Source of the DNA: a virus | Lineage: Duplodnaviria; Heunggongvirae; Uroviricota; Caudoviricetes | IMG/VR virus record: IMGVR_UViG_2609460344_000022 | DNA length: 40,873 nucleotides | Strand: one strand, 5' to 3' | In this document: one piece after another, positions 6,085-32,066 of the stretch | How positions within the stretch are numbered: the stretch's first letter is position 1 | Layout: each line of letters opens with the position of its first letter | Position numbers and translations under genes: made by a program | Notes under the pieces: generated by a model | What the model was told of the DNA's origin: nothing | The model's input: the letters and a program-made list of their open reading frames with translations, nothing else | Database searches by the model: none

Positions 6085-6324
6085 TCACCATGATTCGGCC
6101 TTTACAGGCAAACCATCGCGTCCCAGGAAAACTTTAATCATGCAGTCGGTAATGCATGTTTTTGTCGTGAAGTTACGAATATAGAGCTTTCTCTTTTCAA
6201 TATTGTTTGCTGAAGCGATATATGTGCGGCCTTCATGAAGAACATAATCGCCAGGTGTCACGCACTGACGTGGTATTTCATCAGTCCCGAAGTGATGAGC
6301 AATCATAATTATCTCCATTTTCAC
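6085..6324 (-). CDS. Hypothetical small protein (likely starts at ATG 6306 with GGAG SD)
   Basis: 79-aa track ORF; internal ATG preceded by GGAGATAATT gives a 73-aa product; no recognized family. Confidence 0.4.
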
Positions 6325-6482
6325 AAATGAACTTTGTTGATGCGGTGCCTGGTGCCTCCAGGTGACGTTAACCAGTTAACAATTAACGCCGGGTCAGGGG
6401 ATGATGACTTGCCGTGACATCCTGTCGGTTTAACTGTTCCGCGTGCGCTTAGCCGCATTCACCGCATCACAAAATTCACTTT

Positions 6483-6530
6483 AAAAAAGGGCGGACATCA
6501 GCCAGCAATAAACTGATGCCGCCAATGACT
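6483..6530 (-). terminator. Candidate intrinsic terminator inside early-left operon (tL-like)
   Basis: On minus strand: GGCGGCATCAG-loop-CTGATGTCCGCC stem followed by CTTTTTT. Confidence 0.45.
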
Positions 6531-6940
6531 ACACACAGCAATGTTGTTATTCACAACCGGAAGCGCACGGTCGAAGAAAATTTAACGATGCCGTACAGAT
6601 ATACGAGCTTTGCCGTGCGCTTTCGTGTTATGCCCTGGCTTTTCAGGGGAATATCTGTTCAGTAAACTGAGATTGCCGGATTCACACCCGTGTCCGGCGC
6701 ACGAACTCCACCTGACCCGTGGAGAACTCCTTAACTACAACCCCGTAAGGAGGGTGAATTTATGACATAAGAAGAAAAGGCAATGTTTCTGATGCGACTG
6801 GCTGTTGATACCTACAACACACAATTCAGGGAAGAAAAAATACCTCAAAAGGCAGTTCCTGCCGCGGTAGATAGGGGCGGTGCTATTGCCGTATTTTACG
6901 ACGCATTTGAATCCTTTTTTGATGAAAAAACTCGCAGCTG

Positions 6941-7300
6941 TTAGCGACTTCGGAACATCGAGTAATAAATAACGTCCATTACGGTTCTTAAACAACAATC
7001 AGTGGGCTTGATGTTGTGCTTTTCAAGCTCACTTGCCATCACTTCCATTATTCTTGCACTTACACGAATTATTTGGTGGCTGTAAGCGACGCAACTATCG
7101 CTGATATTGCTGTTTATTTCTATTGCTTCATTTTCACCATTAGCACTAACTTCAGATGTGCTGTTTTCATTTTCCTGTATCAGTGCTGCTTCCGCCATCC
7201 TGATGCGTCCCAGCGTTGAGGAATTTGGGCTAAGTTGATAAACCTGTCGGGCATCTTCCAGAAGCAGGGCGATAATGTGCTTCAGTTCTGTTTCGTTCAT
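6941..7300 (-). CDS. Hypothetical protein
   Basis: 119-aa ORF downstream of the zinc-ribbon protein in the N operon; no recognized motif. Confidence 0.45.
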   Translation of the reverse strand: MNETELKHIIALLLEDARQVYQLSPNSSTLGRIRMAEAALIQENENSTSEVSANGENEAIEINSNISDSCVAYSHQIIRVSARIMEVMASELEKHNIKPTDCCLRTVMDVIYYSMFRSR

Positions 7301-7331: not shown

Positions 7332-8045
7332 TCAGGAGGTCAGTTCTTTAAGTTTCTGAACCGCTTTATTCATTTCATCCATGCAGTCGATGAACTCGTC
7401 CAGTTTAAGCTGCATTTTTCCGGCGGCCTGAAGAATTTCAAGTTTTAAGGGCGCGAGTTTTTTGTTGAATACATCATCTTCCTGACGTTTTTTCTCCGCA
7501 ATTTCGGCGGCTTTCAGCAATTCTTCTGCCTGTTTTCTGAGTGTTTCTGGTGAAGGTGAAACTACTTTGAGGTTATTCATTTCAGATTCCTGTTGTTGCA
7601 GAATTAATTTATTACATTCTCTGCGCAAGCGTTTCATTGCAGATTCGCACTTCTTACAATAAATGGCTCTCCCGTCACGTTTGCTGGCATCTGAATAAAA
7701 ATCATCGACTGATTTTGTCTGCCCGCATCTGGTGCATAATTTTGACTGAAGGTCCTTAATGATGGTCACGTTTCCTTCCCGTTTGGGATATCCATATTTT
7801 TTGTGGCGGAAAAAGGTTACTCCGTTACCAGAACCTTCTTTTCTGACCTTAAATACAATGATGCTTTCCCGTTTATCGATAAAATCGATGAGCTGGTTTC
7901 TCTCCTTGCCTGACAGTTCGGCAAATGTCTTAACTTTTTTAGTAACTTCCGTAAGTCGAACGCCATCAGGCATTTTTTCAACGAAGTTTTTAATCTCTGC
8001 AAGTGGACGCCATAATTTTTGCGGCAAAACTGAAGGCGTTGTCAT
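7332..8045 (-). CDS. Hypothetical zinc-ribbon / coiled-coil protein
   Basis: 237-aa ORF immediately downstream of N-like gene (3-nt gap); CTRCGQ...CKKCES zinc-ribbon motif followed by Lys/Glu-rich coiled-coil C-terminus. Confidence 0.55.
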   Translation of the reverse strand: MTTPSVLPQKLWRPLAEIKNFVEKMPDGVRLTEVTKKVKTFAELSGKERNQLIDFIDKRESIIVFKVRKEGSGNGVTFFRHKKYGYPKREGNVTIIKDLQSKLCTRCGQTKSVDDFYSDASKRDGRAIYCKKCESAMKRLRRECNKLILQQQESEMNNLKVVSPSPETLRKQAEELLKAAEIAEKKRQEDDVFNKKLAPLKLEILQAAGKMQLKLDEFIDCMDEMNKAVQKLKELTS

Positions 8046-8048
8046 TTA

Positions 8049-8432
8049 TCACCTCGCTGTTATTGTTCCTGATTTGCGATAGCCTGCCGCGTAAATGGCT
8101 ACGTTTGGAAGACATACACCAGTTTCTGGTTGCTTATGTCCAAACTCATTCGCGTACACAATGGCCGCTCGCTCCAGATTGCGTCTGTATTCTTTCTGTT
8201 GCCAGATCACGTCCTGTGCCATGAACTTAATTGGCTTAGCGTCTTCTATGCGCTCAGGCGTTTCGTGAGTACCTTTAGCCTGAATCTGCGCTCTGCTTAG
8301 AGTAGGGCGGTGTAATACTTCTGAACTTATTGCTTCTTCGCGGGCCAGCACGCCGTTAGCTAATGCCTTTGCCTTTAAACGCTCACGACGACGAGAACGT
8401 GAATTGCCTTTGAACTGAGTTCTGCGTGTCAT
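8049..8432 (-). CDS. N: N-like transcription antitermination protein
   Basis: 127-aa basic protein with N-terminal arginine-rich motif (TRRTQFKGNSRSRRRERLKAKA); first gene downstream of candidate pL/nutL. Confidence 0.6.
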   Translation of the reverse strand: MTRRTQFKGNSRSRRRERLKAKALANGVLAREEAISSEVLHRPTLSRAQIQAKGTHETPERIEDAKPIKFMAQDVIWQQKEYRRNLERAAIVYANEFGHKQPETGVCLPNVAIYAAGYRKSGTITAR

Positions 8433-8597: not shown

Positions 8598-8664
8598 GCG
8601 CTTTGTCAGCGCCGTAGATTCATATTCGAATCGTTGTATATTCACCGCCCTGGTGAGTAGAGCG
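8598..8664 (-). promoter_or_regulatory. Candidate nutL (boxA-like + boxB hairpin)
   Basis: Minus-strand CGCTCTACTCACC (boxA-like) then hairpin GCGCT-GACAA-AGCGC; same hairpin/loop and flanking CTACG as the nutR candidate. Confidence 0.5.
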
Positions 8665-8899: not shown

Positions 8900-8931
8900 G
8901 AGGAAAAGAAAACCCGGCGCTGAGGCCGGGC
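8900..8931 (-). terminator. Intrinsic terminator ending the kinase operon
   Basis: Minus strand: CCCGGC-CTCA-GCGCCGGG hairpin followed by TTTTCTTTT immediately after the small ORF stop. Confidence 0.6.
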
Positions 8932-9095
8932 TAGATTTTAAAGTATTTATCTTTTAGAGATGTAGATGTAAAATTTTTCGCCTTTGAAAATTTTTTGTCA
9001 TCAGAAGGGCTTATGAACTCATCTTTTTTGTAGGGAACCGCTAATGCTGCATCACGTCTGCGAGGCAGCTTGCTTACTTCCTCGCGCTTTTTCAT
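8931..9095 (-). CDS. Small basic protein (54 aa), translationally coupled to kinase
   Basis: ATG 2 nt after kinase stop (TAATCATG) with AAGGA SD inside kinase 3' end; Lys/Arg-rich (MKKREEVSKLPRRRD...); not in ORF track (<60 aa). Confidence 0.4.
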   Translation of the reverse strand: MKKREEVSKLPRRRDAALAVPYKKDEFISPSDDKKFSKAKNFTSTSLKDKYFKI

Positions 9096-9097
9096 GA

Positions 9098-10144
9098 TTA
9101 GTTATCCTTTAATAACCTATACAGTTTTGTAGGGGTACATCCTGAGGATATTGTTAAGTTCGTAGCACGCCTTTTCCGCCCATCATCGTATAAACGAAAA
9201 CCAGTAGTAGACGAATTTTCTGCGTCAAAAACTATAGACAGTATAGCGTCCCCAGACTTTTTTTGCCATTCGCATGTGCCGTTAGTTGGTTTCGTCATCT
9301 GTAGACGCCAGTCAAGAACGCCATCACTTATAGCTGAGAGATCGTTTAGTACATCTAGTACTGATTGATATCTTTCATTTGGATCTACATGAATGCATTT
9401 GTTTACTATTGTTATCAATTTTTTATGTATATGGGGAGGATATTCTTTTAATGGATAGCAGCCATTAATTATCGACTCTCTGAGTTGTTCAATCGTGCTA
9501 AATGCAGATCTTTCTCTTTCAAAATTATCATGTCCAACACACATTCTATATATGGTTAATCCTGCCTGATATATGTCATATGTGAAATTATAATCATTTG
9601 TTGATAAAGAAAAATATTCCGGTGGCACATGAAAATGATATCCAAACTCAGGCGCAGCTCTCGATTCCTCATTGACTAACTGAGATAATCCAAAGTCAGA
9701 TAGCATGGCCTCATTTCTGTTTGATATCATGATGTTATTAGGTTTTATATCAAAATGCATAAGACCTTTTGAGTGTATATGATAAAGTCCACTTAAAAAT
9801 TGAATAGAATACCGTATTATCTCCCTGCTTGTAAGATTATTTTTTTTCATTAATTGGTTTAGCGAACCATTATGATAAAATGGCATGGCTATATAGATAT
9901 TGCTCTCACATTGAGCAGCATACTGAACTTGCACAATATTTGGATGTGCATGTTTATAGAGAAGCCTTGCTTCATTAAAGTAGTCGTCGTGGTTAGTGTT
10001 TTCTTTTTTTTCTATTTCTTTAATCACCAAGTCATGAGCTAGGTGTCTGTCATGAGCCAGATATACTTTTGAAAAACAACCCTGTTCTTCTAGATCACGA
10101 ATCCATTCGAATTCTACATCAGCTCTTTTGTATGGAGTTAGCAT
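9098..10144 (-). CDS. Eukaryotic-like Ser/Thr protein kinase (Stk-like)
   Basis: 348 aa; catalytic loop HFDIKPNN, DFG motif (SDFGLS), beta3 Lys (VIKEI); strongly AT-rich; located between cI and pL. Confidence 0.8.
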   Translation of the reverse strand: MLTPYKRADVEFEWIRDLEEQGCFSKVYLAHDRHLAHDLVIKEIEKKENTNHDDYFNEARLLYKHAHPNIVQVQYAAQCESNIYIAMPFYHNGSLNQLMKKNNLTSREIIRYSIQFLSGLYHIHSKGLMHFDIKPNNIMISNRNEAMLSDFGLSQLVNEESRAAPEFGYHFHVPPEYFSLSTNDYNFTYDIYQAGLTIYRMCVGHDNFERERSAFSTIEQLRESIINGCYPLKEYPPHIHKKLITIVNKCIHVDPNERYQSVLDVLNDLSAISDGVLDWRLQMTKPTNGTCEWQKKSGDAILSIVFDAENSSTTGFRLYDDGRKRRATNLTISSGCTPTKLYRLLKDN

Positions 10145-18797: not shown

Positions 18798-18908
18798 TTG
18801 ACAACGTCGCGTGTTCGGGGCTATATTCCTCACGCGCCAGCAAAACCTGGCGTCGGGATTAGCACCCCGGATATCGAAACGGTGCATAACCGCGCTGGCG
18901 GTTTTTTT
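18798..18908 (+). ncRNA. Promoter + ~75-nt structured RNA + intrinsic terminator (copy 1)
   Basis: TTGACA-N18-TATATT (18798-18827); hairpins CGCCAG-CAAAAC-CTGGCG and AACCGC-GCTG-GCGGTT followed by TTTTTTT (18888-18908). Confidence 0.45.
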
Positions 18909-19072
18909 ATGCGCTAAGCACAGTCACATTCGCGATTTATGGCGGGCTGTGTGGGGGAGCCGAAAGGCTCGCCGGATGTTTCGACCGGTAGTGCTAACCC
19001 CGCACAGTTCGCCACCACGATGATTAGCACCTGACGGTGGCGAGGTAAAAATTATCGAAACGCGAGGTCATT

Positions 19073-20382: not shown

Positions 20383-20497
20383 TTGACGTGATGATTTATT
20401 CGGGGCTATATTCCTCACGCGCCAGCAAAATCTGGCGTCGGGATTGGCGTCCTGGATAGAGACCGCGACAGATACACGCCGCGAGCGTGTTTTTTAT
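20383..20497 (+). ncRNA. Promoter + ~75-nt structured RNA + intrinsic terminator (copy 2)
   Basis: TTGACG-N18-TATATT (20383-20412); hairpin CGCCAG-CAAAAT-CTGGCG; terminator ACACGC-CGCGA-GCGTGT + TTTTTTATT (20474-20499). Confidence 0.45.
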
Positions 20498-20656
20498 TGT
20501 CGTATGCACGCGCACATCTGAATTATGGTGGGCTGTGTGGGGGCGGAGAGATCCGCGCCGGTCGGTTTCCCGGTTACGCCAACCCTGCACAGTTCACCAC
20601 CAGACGATTGGCGTCGTCGGTGGTGAGTTATTAAGAAACCACTCGAGGGCGTCATT

Positions 20657-22786: not shown

Positions 22787-22980
22787 TGAATGCTAAAATT
22801 CAAACGATACCTGAATTACTGATCTGCACCAGGGGAAATCAGACAGAAGTCGCCAGAATACTGAACTGCAATCGTGCTACAGTCAGAAAATACATTGATG
22901 ATAAAGATGCGAAAAAGCACGCCGTCGTCAATGGCGTCCTTATGGTTCATCGCGGATGGGGTAAAGATACTGATGCGTGA
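22783..22980 (+). CDS. ninH: NinH-like protein
   Basis: 65 aa; '[42 protein letters not shown]' resembles recalled lambda NinH. Confidence 0.7.
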
Positions 22981-23407
22981 TATCCGGCAGGTTCTTGAGC
23001 GCTGGGGGGCATGGGCGGTAAATAACTATGAGGATGTTACATGGTCGCCCATTGCTGCCGGATTTAAGGGACTGATCCCCGAAAAAGTAAAATCACGTCC
23101 ACAGTGCTGTGACGATGATGCGATGGTGATATGCGGGTGCATAGCCCGCCTTTACCGGAACAATCGCGATCTGCATGACTTGCTGGTTGATTACTACGTG
23201 TTGGGGGAGACGTTCATGGCGCTGGCACGGAAACATGGGTGCTCTGACACCTGTATAGGTAAACGCCTTCACAAAGCGGAGGGGATTGTTGAAGGCATGC
23301 TGATGATGCTGGGAGTGAGGCTTGAGATGGATCGGTATGTTGAGCGTGAATTGCCGGGAGGGAGAAGCTCTGTATTTTATCAGCGAAAAAATAGTTTACG
23401 ATCGTAA
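22973..23407 (+). CDS. Q: Late-gene antiterminator Q (phage 21/82 type)
   Basis: 144 aa from ATG 22973; '[49 protein letters not shown]' matches recalled Q82 family. Confidence 0.8.
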
Positions 23408-23690: not shown

Positions 23691-24172
23691 TCCGTTCAAC
23701 GGGAATGTTACATACCTCACAATTAAGTCAGTTGAATGTTGTCTGCCCGGATGAGAATTTGTTAGAAAAAACTGCATGGTGAATCCCCCTGAGCGGAGGG
23801 GCGACTGGTGACGGTATAATCTCTGATTATCAAAACGAGAATGACGCGGGTTTAGTGGCACCGGGCTGAACTCACCGGGAGGCACCCGGCACCATGCAAT
23901 GGCACATAGCGCCACTCTCCAGCCCCTCTCCGGAGGGGCTTTCTTATGGACAAAAAAGCCCGCGCTGGGAGACGCGGGCGGCAAGGAATGAACAATGAAA
24001 CGTGAAGTAATATTTCAGCTGGCGAATAATACCCCATAGTAATCACTCTGCGCAACTGCGCGACCTTTTTCGAATTGCGGGCTGTAGTCTCCCTTCTGCC
24101 ATTGTCCTGTAACTTCCGGACTTCAGCCCGCTCCTTATTTTACTCACAATATTATCCCGGCCGGGAGGATTC

Positions 24173-26083
24173 ATGGCATTTAAACACTATGATGTTGTCA
24201 GGGCGGCGTCGCCGTCAGACCTTGCGAAACGAATAACTCAAAAACTGAAGGAAGGGTGGCAGCCTTATGGTAGTGCGCTGATTTCGACAGCTGGTTATGG
24301 TGCGGAGTTCATCCAGCCAGTTGTGAGTGAGGGGAGCATCTCATCACCAGAGGAGCCAGGCAACCGTCCGACGACCTCAGCGCCTTCTGTTGCGCCAGAA
24401 TATTACTATGTGATCGCGCTTGCTGGTCAGTCCAATGGTATGTCATACGGTGAGGGACTGCCATTACCGGATACATTCGACAGCCCTGATCCACGTATTA
24501 AACAGTTAGCGCGTCGCAGTACGGTGACACCGGGCGGTGCAGCATGCAAATATAACGACATCATTCCGGCGGACCATTGTCTGCATGATGTGCAGGACAT
24601 GAGCCGTCTTAACCATCCGAAAGCGGACCTGTCAAAGGGGCAGTACGGAACCGTGGGGCAGGGGCTGCATATCGCCAAAAAACTGCTGCCGTTTATACCG
24701 GCGAATGCGGGCATTCTGCTGGTTCCGTGCTGTCGTGGTGGTTCAGCGTTCACCACCGGAGCTGATGGCACATACAGTGACGCGAGTGGCGCCTCGGAGA
24801 ATTCAACCCGCTGGGGTGTGGACAAGCCGCTGTATAAGGACCTTATCGGTCGAACAAAAGCGGCACTGGAGAAGAACCCGAAAAATGTGCTGTTTGCCGT
24901 GGTGTGGATGCAGGGGGAATTTGATTTTGGCGGTACGCCGGCAAATCATGCCGCACAGTTTGGTGCGCTGGTTGATAAATTCCGTGCAGACCTGGCGGAT
25001 ATGGCAGGCCAGTGCGTCGGTGGCTCTGCTGGCGGTGTTCCCTGGATATGCGGGGACACGACGTATTTCTGGAAGCAGAAGAACGAATCCACGTACCAGA
25101 CGGTGTACGGCAGCTATAAAAATAAAACGGAAAAGAATATCCATTTCGTACCGTTCATGACCGATGAGAACGGGGTGAATGTGCCGACGAACAAACCGGA
25201 AGAAGACCCGGACATTCCGGGTATCGGTTATTACGGTTCGAAATGGCGTGACAGCTCAGCCACCTGGACGTCACAGGACAGGGCGAGCCATTTCAGTTCA
25301 TGGGCTCGCCGTGGGATTATTTCCGACCGTCTGGCAACGGCGATTCTGAGCTGCGCGGGTAAGTCTTCTGCGTTTGTTAATGGTACTGCCGGGGTGGTTG
25401 TTCCAGACAGACCGGTTACCACCTCAGAGTCTGTAATTTTTTACGATGCCAAAAAAGCTACAGACAATCAGCTGAAACCCTATGGCTGGGACGGTGTGTA
25501 TGGCAGGCGCACACTGGTTGATGACAGCGGCAATAAAGCTCTGCGAATTGAGAAAAATAACAGCGCGAAATCCTGGTCAATGTACTGTGATATTGCTGCA
25601 GACAAGGCAAAACTTTTACTGGAAAAAGGCGGAGAAATTGCTGTCCGGTTTAAAATCCCCGAAAACGTCAATCTTGAGACAACCAGAAACAAGTATGCCT
25701 TTGGTTTGTACTGGCGAATAGCGGAATGGCCGGGTGAGGGTGGTGAAGGCCATCTGAGTTCTTTCTTTGTCCAGACAGATAAAGCCAGTATTAATGTTGC
25801 ATACCATCATACAGTTAATCAACAAAAAGAACTTGGCACGTTTGGCGCATTCGACCATGACTGGCATACGCTTGCATTTAAATTTAAGGGCAGTAACAGC
25901 ATTAATGTTACTCCGGTGCTTGATGGTGTGGATGGACAGGCGTTTGACCTGGTGAAATGGGCCAATACTGCTAATGGACTCAACAGGTTTGTCATTACGG
26001 ATATTACAGGTAGTGCAGAAACCTACCCTGTACTTATTGATACGGTGGAAGTTAAAGCAAACAAAGCTGGAGCAGCCGCATAA
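24173..26083 (+). CDS. NanS-p-like sialate O-acetylesterase (DUF1737 + SGNH/SASA domain)
   Basis: 636 aa; N-terminal DUF1737-like 'MAFKHYDVVRA...LKEGWQPYG'; esterase motif 'IALAGQSNGMSYGEG'; located between Q and the lysis genes. Confidence 0.7.
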   Translation: MAFKHYDVVRAASPSDLAKRITQKLKEGWQPYGSALISTAGYGAEFIQPVVSEGSISSPEEPGNRPTTSAPSVAPEYYYVIALAGQSNGMSYGEGLPLPDTFDSPDPRIKQLARRSTVTPGGAACKYNDIIPADHCLHDVQDMSRLNHPKADLSKGQYGTVGQGLHIAKKLLPFIPANAGILLVPCCRGGSAFTTGADGTYSDASGASENSTRWGVDKPLYKDLIGRTKAALEKNPKNVLFAVVWMQGEFDFGGTPANHAAQFGALVDKFRADLADMAGQCVGGSAGGVPWICGDTTYFWKQKNESTYQTVYGSYKNKTEKNIHFVPFMTDENGVNVPTNKPEEDPDIPGIGYYGSKWRDSSATWTSQDRASHFSSWARRGIISDRLATAILSCAGKSSAFVNGTAGVVVPDRPVTTSESVIFYDAKKATDNQLKPYGWDGVYGRRTLVDDSGNKALRIEKNNSAKSWSMYCDIAADKAKLLLEKGGEIAVRFKIPENVNLETTRNKYAFGLYWRIAEWPGEGGEGHLSSFFVQTDKASINVAYHHTVNQQKELGTFGAFDHDWHTLAFKFKGSNSINVTPVLDGVDGQAFDLVKWANTANGLNRFVITDITGSAETYPVLIDTVEVKANKAGAAA

Positions 26084-30379: not shown

Positions 30380-32066
30380 ACCGCGATGTGATGAACCGTC
30401 AGAAATGACAGAGGCCGAACAACGTCTGTTCATCATGACTAAACTGAGCAATCCCTGGTGGCGGCTCAATCATCTCTACAAGATACAGAACGAAAAAGGT
30501 GAGCTGGTCACCTTCAGAATGCGACCGGCGCAGCGCCAGTTGTTCCGGAGCATGCACAATAAAAATATTATCCTGAAAGCACGCCAGCTGGGGTTTTCCA
30601 CGGCCATTGATATTTATCTTCTCGACCAGGCATTATTCATACCGCATCTCAAATGCGGGATTGTCGCTCAGGATAAACAGGCTGCCAGTGAAATTTTCCG
30701 CACCAAAATTGCTGTACCGTTTGATCATCTTCCTGACTGGCTGAGAGCCTCATTCACCATCGTTGAACGTCGTAGCGGAGCCAGCGGTGGCTATATCCTG
30801 TTTGGGCACGGCTCGAGTATCCAGGTGGCAACCTCATTCCGTTCAGGTACGGTGCAGCGCCTGCATATCTCAGAGCACGGCAAAATTTGCGCAAAATATC
30901 CGGCTAAGGCGAAAGAGCTGCGAACCGGTACACTTAATGCCGTCTCTGATGAGTGCATTATTTTTGATGAATCCACTGCTGAAGGTGTGGGTGGCGATTT
31001 TTACGAGATGAGTAACCGGGCACAGGAAATCACTGCATCAGGGCTGGCGCTGACGCCACAGGATTATAAATTCCATTTTTACGCCTGGTGGCAGGATCTC
31101 AAATACAGCGCCAGAGTGCCGGAAAGCGGACTTAAGCTGTCACGGGAAAAAACAGCGTATTTTTCTGCGGTTGAAAAAGCAATGAACATCACGCTTACCG
31201 ATGAGCAGAAACACTGGTACATCTGCAAGGAAACTGAACAGCGTGAGGAAATGAAGCAGGAGTTTCCCTCAACACCACAGGAGGCGTTTCTGACGTCCGG
31301 ACGACGGGTGTTCAGTGCGGAAAGCACGCTGCAGGCAGAGTCATTCTGTTCGCCACCGCTGATTGTTTATGACATTGAACCGGTTACAGGAACGAAGACC
31401 AAAGCGCAGTCTCTGCGTGACGGGAATAAAGCCGAACAGCACCGGACGCTGATGAATTATCTGCTGGTCTGGGAGCTACCGGATCCGGATGAAGAGTATG
31501 TATGCGGAGCGGATACTGCTGAGGGGCTGGAGCACGGAGACCGCTCATCGCTGGATATCATCAGATGTAGTAATGGTGAGCAGGTAGCCCACTGGTTTGG
31601 TCATCTCGATGCGGAGCTTTTCGCTCATCTCATTGCGCAGGTCTGCCGTATGTACAACAACGCGTTTGTGGGGCCGGAGCGTAACAATCACGGACATGCC
31701 GTTATCCTGAAACTCCGGGAACTCTATCCGACGCGTTATATCTACAACGAACAGCACCTTGACCAGGCATATGACGACGATACGCCCCGTCTTGGCTGGC
31801 TGACAACCCGCCAGAGTAAACCGGTCCTGACTGAGGGAATGAAAACGCTGCTGAATAACGGCCTGTCGGGGATCCGCTGGACGGGCACATTATCAGAAAT
31901 GAACACCTACGTTTATGACGCGAAAGGCTCCATGAATGCACAGGAAGGCTGTTTTGATGATCAGCTTATGAGCTACATGATTGCCCAGGAGATGCGCGCC
32001 AGAATGCCGGTGAGGGTAAGACAGAAAACGGATAAACGCAGAACCACACACTGGATGGCTCACTGA
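30360..32066 (+). CDS. Terminase large subunit
   Basis: 568-aa track ORF (alternative start ATG 30405); Walker A-like 'ILKARQLGFST', Walker B 'CIIFDEST'; precedes portal. Confidence 0.8.
   Translation: MTFRKNEPRCDEPSEMTEAEQRLFIMTKLSNPWWRLNHLYKIQNEKGELVTFRMRPAQRQLFRSMHNKNIILKARQLGFSTAIDIYLLDQALFIPHLKCGIVAQDKQAASEIFRTKIAVPFDHLPDWLRASFTIVERRSGASGGYILFGHGSSIQVATSFRSGTVQRLHISEHGKICAKYPAKAKELRTGTLNAVSDECIIFDESTAEGVGGDFYEMSNRAQEITASGLALTPQDYKFHFYAWWQDLKYSARVPESGLKLSREKTAYFSAVEKAMNITLTDEQKHWYICKETEQREEMKQEFPSTPQEAFLTSGRRVFSAESTLQAESFCSPPLIVYDIEPVTGTKTKAQSLRDGNKAEQHRTLMNYLLVWELPDPDEEYVCGADTAEGLEHGDRSSLDIIRCSNGEQVAHWFGHLDAELFAHLIAQVCRMYNNAFVGPERNNHGHAVILKLRELYPTRYIYNEQHLDQAYDDDTPRLGWLTTRQSKPVLTEGMKTLLNNGLSGIRWTGTLSEMNTYVYDAKGSMNAQEGCFDDQLMSYMIAQEMRARMPVRVRQKTDKRRTTHWMAH

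Follow-up and report, generated by a model that had tools for sequence, protein, structure and literature searches.

A predicted KilS-type small RNA with an RprA-like seed, a structured kil leader and a decayed opposite-strand gene in the early-left operon of a lambdoid prophage

The closest described relatives of the locus analysed here are two small RNAs (sRNAs) of Escherichia coli K-12 prophages, KilS of Rac and DicF of Qin, together with RprA. KilS was predicted from Hfq RIL-seq and verified by northern blot (Bar et al. 2021, PMC8175672). Its transcription start site (TSS) is mapped to 1418502 and an RNase E site to 1418471, yncL is listed among its targets, and it is bound by Hfq with target chimeras, although only three RIL-seq interactors are known for it (PMC8175672). 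[quoted passage not shown] The K-12 KilS RNase E site reads GAC/AUUGCUG (the slash marks the cut) and lies at the 5' edge of the seed; by our own count on the rprA sequence, RprAproc starts at the same AUUGCUG motif at its seed edge. The coincidence of these two positions indicates a common processed architecture of seed, 2-4 nt, terminator hairpin and U-tail. A search of the accessible literature found no paper naming KilS together with RprA or DicF, and the seed identity between the KilS-type sRNA and RprA appears to be unreported.

The window, that is the whole stretch of 40,873 nt analysed, is a lambdoid prophage with its early-left operon on the minus strand. The operon and its nut sites are, in order of transcription:

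8612..8598 (minus): nutL boxB GCGCUGACAAAGCGC, a hairpin upstream of N
8432..8049 (minus): N
8045..7332 (minus): 237-aa ORF
7300..6941 (minus): 119-aa ORF, followed by the segment under study
6085..6306 (minus): kil, a KilR-type FtsZ inhibitor gene (phrog_294 Kil, E 2.4e-38)
beyond kil (minus): 130-aa ORF and RecE-like gene, then gam, bet and exo
12159-12173 (plus): nutR-like boxB, a hairpin with a compensated closing pair, as expected for nutR

The boxB search, with up to two mismatches allowed, gave three matches where 0.08 were expected. The sequence at 8612..8598 is presumably that of the phage P22 boxB, and the canonical boxA YGCTCTTWA had no match anywhere in the window. Judged by sequence, this is a lambdoid pL layout, with an N gene and a nut site upstream of a terminator on the same strand, and the initial annotation was right to place the segment in the early-left operon. 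It lies past both nutL and N. The kil start is most likely the ATG at 6306 with the Shine-Dalgarno sequence GGAG at 6316..6313, so that the gap between genes covers 6307-6940. The chromosome of E. coli strain 23CRST047 is 100% identical over 6325-6940; in the RefSeq annotation of this identical prophage kil is named kilR and nothing is annotated at 6325-6940, and the gap was likewise unannotated in every relative inspected. Directly upstream of the pL/nutL region there is a bidirectional GC-rich terminator (8911-8932), at which a minus-strand stretch (8911-10144) ends that comprises a gene for a serine/threonine kinase of 348 aa and an ORF of 54 aa.

The gap and its margins contain the following features:

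6762-6972 (plus): pseudogene of a 63-69-aa phage protein (phrog_2605), Shine-Dalgarno sequence TAAGGAGG at 6746-6753, ATG at 6762
6998..6735 (minus): 87-aa ORF with a TTG start, the antisense shadow of the plus-strand gene
6545..6760 (minus): conserved spacer, containing the GCGCACGG/CCGTGCGC repeat plus four hairpins (6633-6648, 6659-6670, 6675-6698 and 6706-6724)
6572..6484 (minus): predicted primary KilS-type sRNA, about 89 nt, its 5' end placed from the K-12 KilS TSS and its 3' end at the intrinsic terminator
6542..6484 (minus): putative product of RNase E cleavage, about 59 nt, made up of seed, terminator hairpin and U-tail
6542..6527 (minus): seed AUUGCUGUGUGUAGUC, 16 nt, identical to RprA nt 60-75
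6523..6483 (minus): intrinsic terminator, stem GGCGGCAUCAGUU/GGCUGAUGUCCGCC at 6523..6490 and U-run at 6488..6483
6482..6307 (minus): structured kil leader, about 175 nt, homologous to the dicF-dicB leader and STnc100-like
6458..6321 (minus): 45-aa ORF inside the kil leader
6390..6364 and 6362..6348 (minus): leader hairpins, from the fold
6316..6304 (minus): kil Shine-Dalgarno sequence and ATG, at the leader end

No convincing ORF had been seen on the transcribed strand, and this holds for the whole of 6307-6940, since of the minus-strand ORFs with 30 aa or more only two reach into 6325-6940, and neither is conserved. The 87-aa ORF is broken into 33 + 68 aa in phage phiSTEC1589, and the counterpart of the 45-aa ORF in Rac and Qin has 24-26 aa in a different frame; both were rejected as genes for want of conservation. 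The 45-aa ORF ends 15 nt before the kil ATG and has a poor Shine-Dalgarno sequence. Four leader variants with differing centres keep it in frame, whereas Rac and Qin have a truncated version. This ORF is unlikely to be a gene, though it may be translationally coupled to kil. The inverted repeats reported at first sight could all be located, namely GCGCACGG at 6563-6570 with CCGTGCGC at 6613-6620 (the repeat spans 6561-6570 / 6613-6623) and CCCTGG-CTTTT-CAGGG at 6633-6648, and the other three hairpins of the spacer are further repeats of this kind. The minus-strand RNA of 6650..6300 folds at -126.8 kcal/mol against -99.3 +/- 4.6 for shuffled sequences (z = -6.0, none of 100 shuffles being as good); for 6945..6530 the z values were -2.8 on the minus and -3.2 on the plus strand.

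The central part of the gap is homologous to KilS. It is identical to E. coli K-12 Rac kilS (b4833, annotated as an ncRNA at the equivalent Rac position in the MG1655 RefSeq record) at 79 of 99 aligned positions (80%), across the whole length and with the seed included, and the primary form folds with z = -3.4. The placement is also that of Rac: directly upstream of a kilR-type gene of the same orientation, with a terminator at the end, and between that gene and an opposite-strand neighbour, which is sieB in Rac and the phrog_2605 pseudogene in the window. Both loci have the same 16-nt seed, a GGCGGCAUCAG...CUGAUGUCCGCC terminator, the leader and the RNase E motif AC/AUUG at the seed edge, which in the window reads AAC/AUUGCUG with the putative cut at 6543/6542. 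Unlike in K-12 KilS, the terminator loop is 8 nt shorter and the 5' end differs by 12 nt, without the extended -10 TG of Rac, which is CG here. The -35 is poor, a -10-like TAAATT is kept at 6584..6579 (read by hand), and a consensus promoter scan of 6540-6760 found none on either strand. Because the Rac promoter features are not conserved and no consensus promoter was found, production of the sRNA in a lysogen is uncertain. Furthermore, the pL operon that houses the window sRNA appears to be intact and N-dependent, whereas K-12 KilS lies in the cryptic, RacR-silenced Rac.

The segment had been thought to end at a minus-strand hairpin and T-run at about 6483-6530. The terminator scan found the structure (hairpin 6520..6494, 10 pairs plus T-run), but it is internal to the segment. 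The suggestion of a non-coding RNA is supported in kind by the KilS homologue, whose predicted 3' end is this structure, except that the RNA is not a new one: it belongs to the DicF family and has a northern-verified relative. Of the terminator-like sites from N to kil, that at 6523..6483 is the strongest, and no other strong one was found there, which makes N-dependent read-through to kil, as proposed initially, a reasonable expectation. Read-through at this point is also plausible from the presence of nutL, N and the nutR-like boxB. Like the lambda-type tL terminators overridden by N, it is an intrinsic terminator past nutL and N and before kil and the recombination genes; unlike them, it doubles as the 3' end of a conserved sRNA. 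Among the homologous 3' domains, 58 of 60 distinct ones fold as a hairpin with a GGCGG arm plus a U-run, with 22 different 5' arms, so the terminator stem covaries freely.

Downstream of the terminator, the kil leader aligns block for block with the Qin dicF-dicB and the Rac kilS-kilR intervals and also with phages. Its architecture is that of two invariant blocks around a variable centre, and the cassette precedes kil, dicB and several other genes. RNAalifold on 49 non-redundant copies gave 32 pairs, five of them with compensatory changes, arranged as a closing helix (UGAUGCGGUG / CACCGCAUCA) and two hairpins. In the window the closing helix has about 25-30 bp (arms 6482..6460 and 6347..6322), with 5 nt between its end and the kil Shine-Dalgarno sequence. 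Against the Rfam STnc100 family (RF02076) the leader scores 33.1 bits (E 2.7e-5) with a gathering cut-off of 47. It has in common with the STnc100 / PasD prophage RNAs the GGUGAAU motif, the closing helix and UCACCNGGAGGCACCNGGCACC, but its score stays below the cut-off, its centre differs, and it is a 5' leader rather than a free-standing sRNA gene. The window also holds one full copy of this family:

23746-23951 (plus): full STnc100 copy, 165 bits

GGUGAAU and UCACCNGGAGGCACCNGGCACC occur both in this copy and in the kil leader, and a structured RNA element may thus be common to the early-left and the late leader. The copy is located just past a Q-like antiterminator ORF (22874-23407) and before a 636-aa ORF (24173-26083). 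Other RNA genes of the window are a sok antitoxin RNA at 16783-16957 (plus, 110 bits), which implies a hok/sok-type toxin-antitoxin locus in the nin region, and tandem isrK / c4-a1b1 / C4 antisense RNA sets at 18821-19019 and 20406-20604 (plus), about 1.6 kb apart; this set is the P1/P7-type ant immunity module, here in two copies.

On the other side of the sRNA, the spacer at 6545..6760 is kept in both KilS-type and DicF-type loci, including the K-12 Qin ydfC-dicF interval, whatever gene lies beyond it. It therefore belongs to the operon on the sRNA strand and not to the plus-strand gene. The remnant of a lost gene, the other possibility raised for this segment, does exist, but only over 6762-6972 and in antisense orientation to the operon, as a plus-strand gene. 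An intact 69-aa ORF, after a strong Shine-Dalgarno sequence (AAGGAG), is present in phiSTEC1589-Stx1c and PhiR5_2, and these relatives match phrog_2605 over 1-69/69 (E 1.5e-45). Homologues down to 46% identity retain the ORF. Their distance from kilR or dicB is 460-570 bp, and in every case they are encoded on the other strand. In the window codon 3 has changed from CAA to TAA (6768-6770), and an extra A in the run at 6925-6930 causes a +1 frameshift; the intact frame would stop at 6970-6972. The stop codon and the frameshift together make the window copy a pseudogene of phrog_2605. Related phages thus have an intact gene in the slot for its right-hand third only, and the rest is leader, sRNA and spacer. 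A Pfam search with the 69-aa protein gave no match, and its AlphaFold model, two helices forming a helical hairpin, is of low confidence (pLDDT 63, pTM 0.31).

The seed is the part in which the locus resembles a host RNA. In the window, as in RprA (RF00034), AUUGCUGUGUGUAGUC is followed by UUG and the terminator hairpin, the seed lying 3 nt before the hairpin, and the similarity runs for about 12 nt 5' of the seed (GUGAAxAACAAC...UUG). This extension beyond the 16-mer suggests common descent or capture over convergence, in either direction between host and phage. In addition, yncL is a listed target of both KilS and RprA, and the window sRNA has the complementarity to csgD site I. Unlike RprA, the window sRNA has no 5' stem-loops and no rpoS-pairing CCCCU...AACGAA, its terminator is different, and it is encoded in a phage locus rather than at ydiK-ydiL. 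Membership of the RprA family was rejected, given the absence of the stem-loops and of the rpoS-pairing region and a score of 32.6 bits (E 0.084) against a cut-off of 70, with only the 3' half aligning convincingly. The likeness is thus to the processed form, and the window sRNA may work like RprAproc. Processed lengths are 47 nt for RprA, 53 nt for DicF and a predicted 59 nt or so for the window, all in one architecture.

Full-length sRNA-mRNA duplex folding gave unrealistically long duplexes and was uninformative, and seed-only or loop-only runs were used instead. [quoted passage not shown] According to a review, one of the two RprA sites on csgD (site I) is next to SL1 (-83..-28), and the seed complement lies just upstream of SL1. 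Pairing is also predicted with the yncL 5'UTR at -43..-16, at a modest -17 to -20 kcal/mol. The gene yncL is a listed RprA target in both RIL-seq and TRIC-seq, independently of its listing for KilS, and the KilS-yncL RIL-seq link could partly come from reads common with RprA. In the window itself, the exact complement of the seed occurs at the sRNA locus only. The only phage-internal candidates are two matches with 3 mismatches (24074-24089 and 30437-30452), of which the one at 24074-24089 is on the minus strand, opposite the adjacent plus-strand ORFs, and so is unlikely to be within their mRNA.

The exact seed followed by GGCGG was found in at least 120 viral contigs, with unrelated 5' flanks, varied stems and upstream of many different genes, and also in 21 species representatives, mostly Enterobacterales. 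Some IMG/VR phage lineages have a much longer hairpin, of about 65 nt, after the RprA-type seed. Within it, ahead of the CCGCC arm and the U-run, there are a Shine-Dalgarno sequence (AGGAGG) and a short frame beginning with ATG. The reverse is found as well, that is one scaffold with several seeds. DicF and KilS types have the terminator and everything 3' of it in common, and it is the single-stranded 5' part that sets them apart. When viral contigs were scanned with the invariant leader as anchor, most copies had the Qin DicF seed, a minority the KilS seed or near-variants, and at least two further seed types turned up, so the KilS-type seed does vary. Another seed again fills the slot in a close relative, Shigella phage 75/02 Stx (1180-1290, minus, in the stretch compared). 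DicF-type terminator and leader were seen with at least five seeds: that of Qin DicF, the KilS/RprA type, CAACAACCCAUGUUGAUUACCUUUUGG, CCAUGUGUAGUCUUUGGUGG and CAUCCAUGUAUCAAUAUCCUCUUUGG. The DicF scaffold looks like a seed-swapping platform. In complete E. coli genomes, some part of the 616-bp query matched in 4,624 of 5,426, the median number of places in a genome being two. In most of them the match covers leader and terminator only, with a variable 5' part. A further E. coli search with a short query did not tell KilS-type from DicF-type loci. About one-third of complete E. coli genomes are estimated to have Rac-like copies, as 11 of 30 evenly spaced rows matched through query position 244.

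Taken together, the segment is quite probably a lambdoid sRNA-plus-leader module placed before a division-inhibitor gene (kil or dicB) and joined to a decayed gene on the opposite strand. Kinship with DicF could also be read as function, the RNA being a DicF orthologue that inhibits ftsZ translation by antisense pairing and blocks division together with Kil. Actually, DicF is the top Rfam family match (RF00039, 6537..6489, full model 1-52, 43.3 bits, E 5.6e-8), Rfam has no KilS family, and the RNA lies upstream of an FtsZ inhibitor gene, as in Qin. Terminator hairpin (GGCGG...CCGCC), U-tail, downstream inhibitor-gene leader and upstream spacer are all homologous, as is the operon slot, and a processed RNA of some 53-59 nt is common to both. 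K-12 KilS even keeps, in its U-rich terminator loop, a predicted complementarity to the ftsZ ribosome binding site of -21.5 kcal/mol, near the -22.8 of DicF. The match is, however, under the Rfam cut-off of 48, and the scan at gathering thresholds returned nothing in the segment, matches appearing only in the E-value scan. The parts with which DicF would pair are those that differ: the 5' seed UUUCUGGUGACG is replaced, the anti-Shine-Dalgarno sequence ACUCCG of the loop (UACUCCG in DicF) is missing, and the duplex predicted for the 3' domain with the ftsZ start region falls to -13.0 against -22.8 kcal/mol for DicF. A segment of about 110 nt between spacer and sRNA is also absent in comparison with Qin DicF. 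Pairing with ftsZ in the manner of DicF is improbable for the window sRNA, and we consider functional orthology very unlikely. That the segment is mainly a decayed minus-strand protein gene of the early-left operon is hardly credible: the 45- and 87-aa ORFs are there, the former in frame in a few leader variants, but their lack of conservation goes with a gap left unannotated among relatives, with conservation at the level of nucleotides and structure, indels included, and with a sole decayed gene that is on the plus strand.

A more serious question is whether the RNA does anything in trans. The locus could be a cis-acting terminator and processing cassette only, which silences the toxic kil until N read-through and leaves the short RNA as a by-product. 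This would fit the distribution, as no other parts are conserved as widely as terminator and leader, which match in most of the 4,624 genomes, and the 5' part varies; it would also fit the long leader helix that adjoins the kil ribosome binding site and the small number of RIL-seq interactors of KilS. A terminator, however, needs no seed, and the 16 nt are kept beside 22 different stems, with unrelated 5' flanks and before many genes. In addition, K-12 KilS binds Hfq with target chimeras, the RNase E site exposes the seed, and DicF, with an identical type of scaffold, acts in trans (PMC5069750). We regard a purely cis-acting cassette as rather improbable.

For the sRNA-plus-leader module, we infer expression, processing, Hfq dependence, targets and N dependence from the homologies, structures and complementarities described. 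Transcription from pL would run through N, the two ORFs and the conserved spacer to the single strong terminator at 6523..6483 and, without N, would end at 6484. Part of the sRNA may also stem from a weak promoter in front of it, as in Rac; the features of that promoter are poorly conserved here. Cleavage by RNase E at AAC/AUUG (6543/6542) would yield an Hfq-type sRNA of about 59 nt with the RprA-type seed single-stranded and exposed. As the seed is that of RprA, pairing with the sites of RprAproc would be expected, and the sRNA would act in trans on targets such as csgD site I and the yncL 5'UTR. With N loaded at nutL, polymerase would pass the terminator into the 175-nt leader, whose closing helix beside the kil ribosome binding site is a likely RNase III substrate, so that the sRNA would be split from the kil mRNA and kil translation gated. 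[quoted passage not shown] On the plus strand, 6762-6972 would be a dead small phage gene convergent with the operon.

A 600-bp stretch that seemed empty, and that is unannotated in the identical RefSeq prophage and in related phages, thus becomes an sRNA of a known family, a structured leader and a pseudogene. This is mostly a gain in annotation, and the seed identity with RprA is the feature that merits an experiment. By virtue of this identity the sRNA may act on host biofilm control. More broadly, KilS-type sRNAs could be phage-borne mimics of processed RprA that repress csgD (curli, biofilm) and further RprA targets such as yncL when the early-left operon is transcribed, with the DicF scaffold as the platform on which seeds are swapped, a proposal that we hold tentatively and with slightly more doubt than confidence. 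If the seed acts, temperate phages would tap directly into the host envelope-stress and biofilm regulon, and, if this is true, a second, hidden factor would contribute to RprA-dependent phenotypes in E. coli strains with Rac-like prophages, which make up an estimated one-third of complete genomes.
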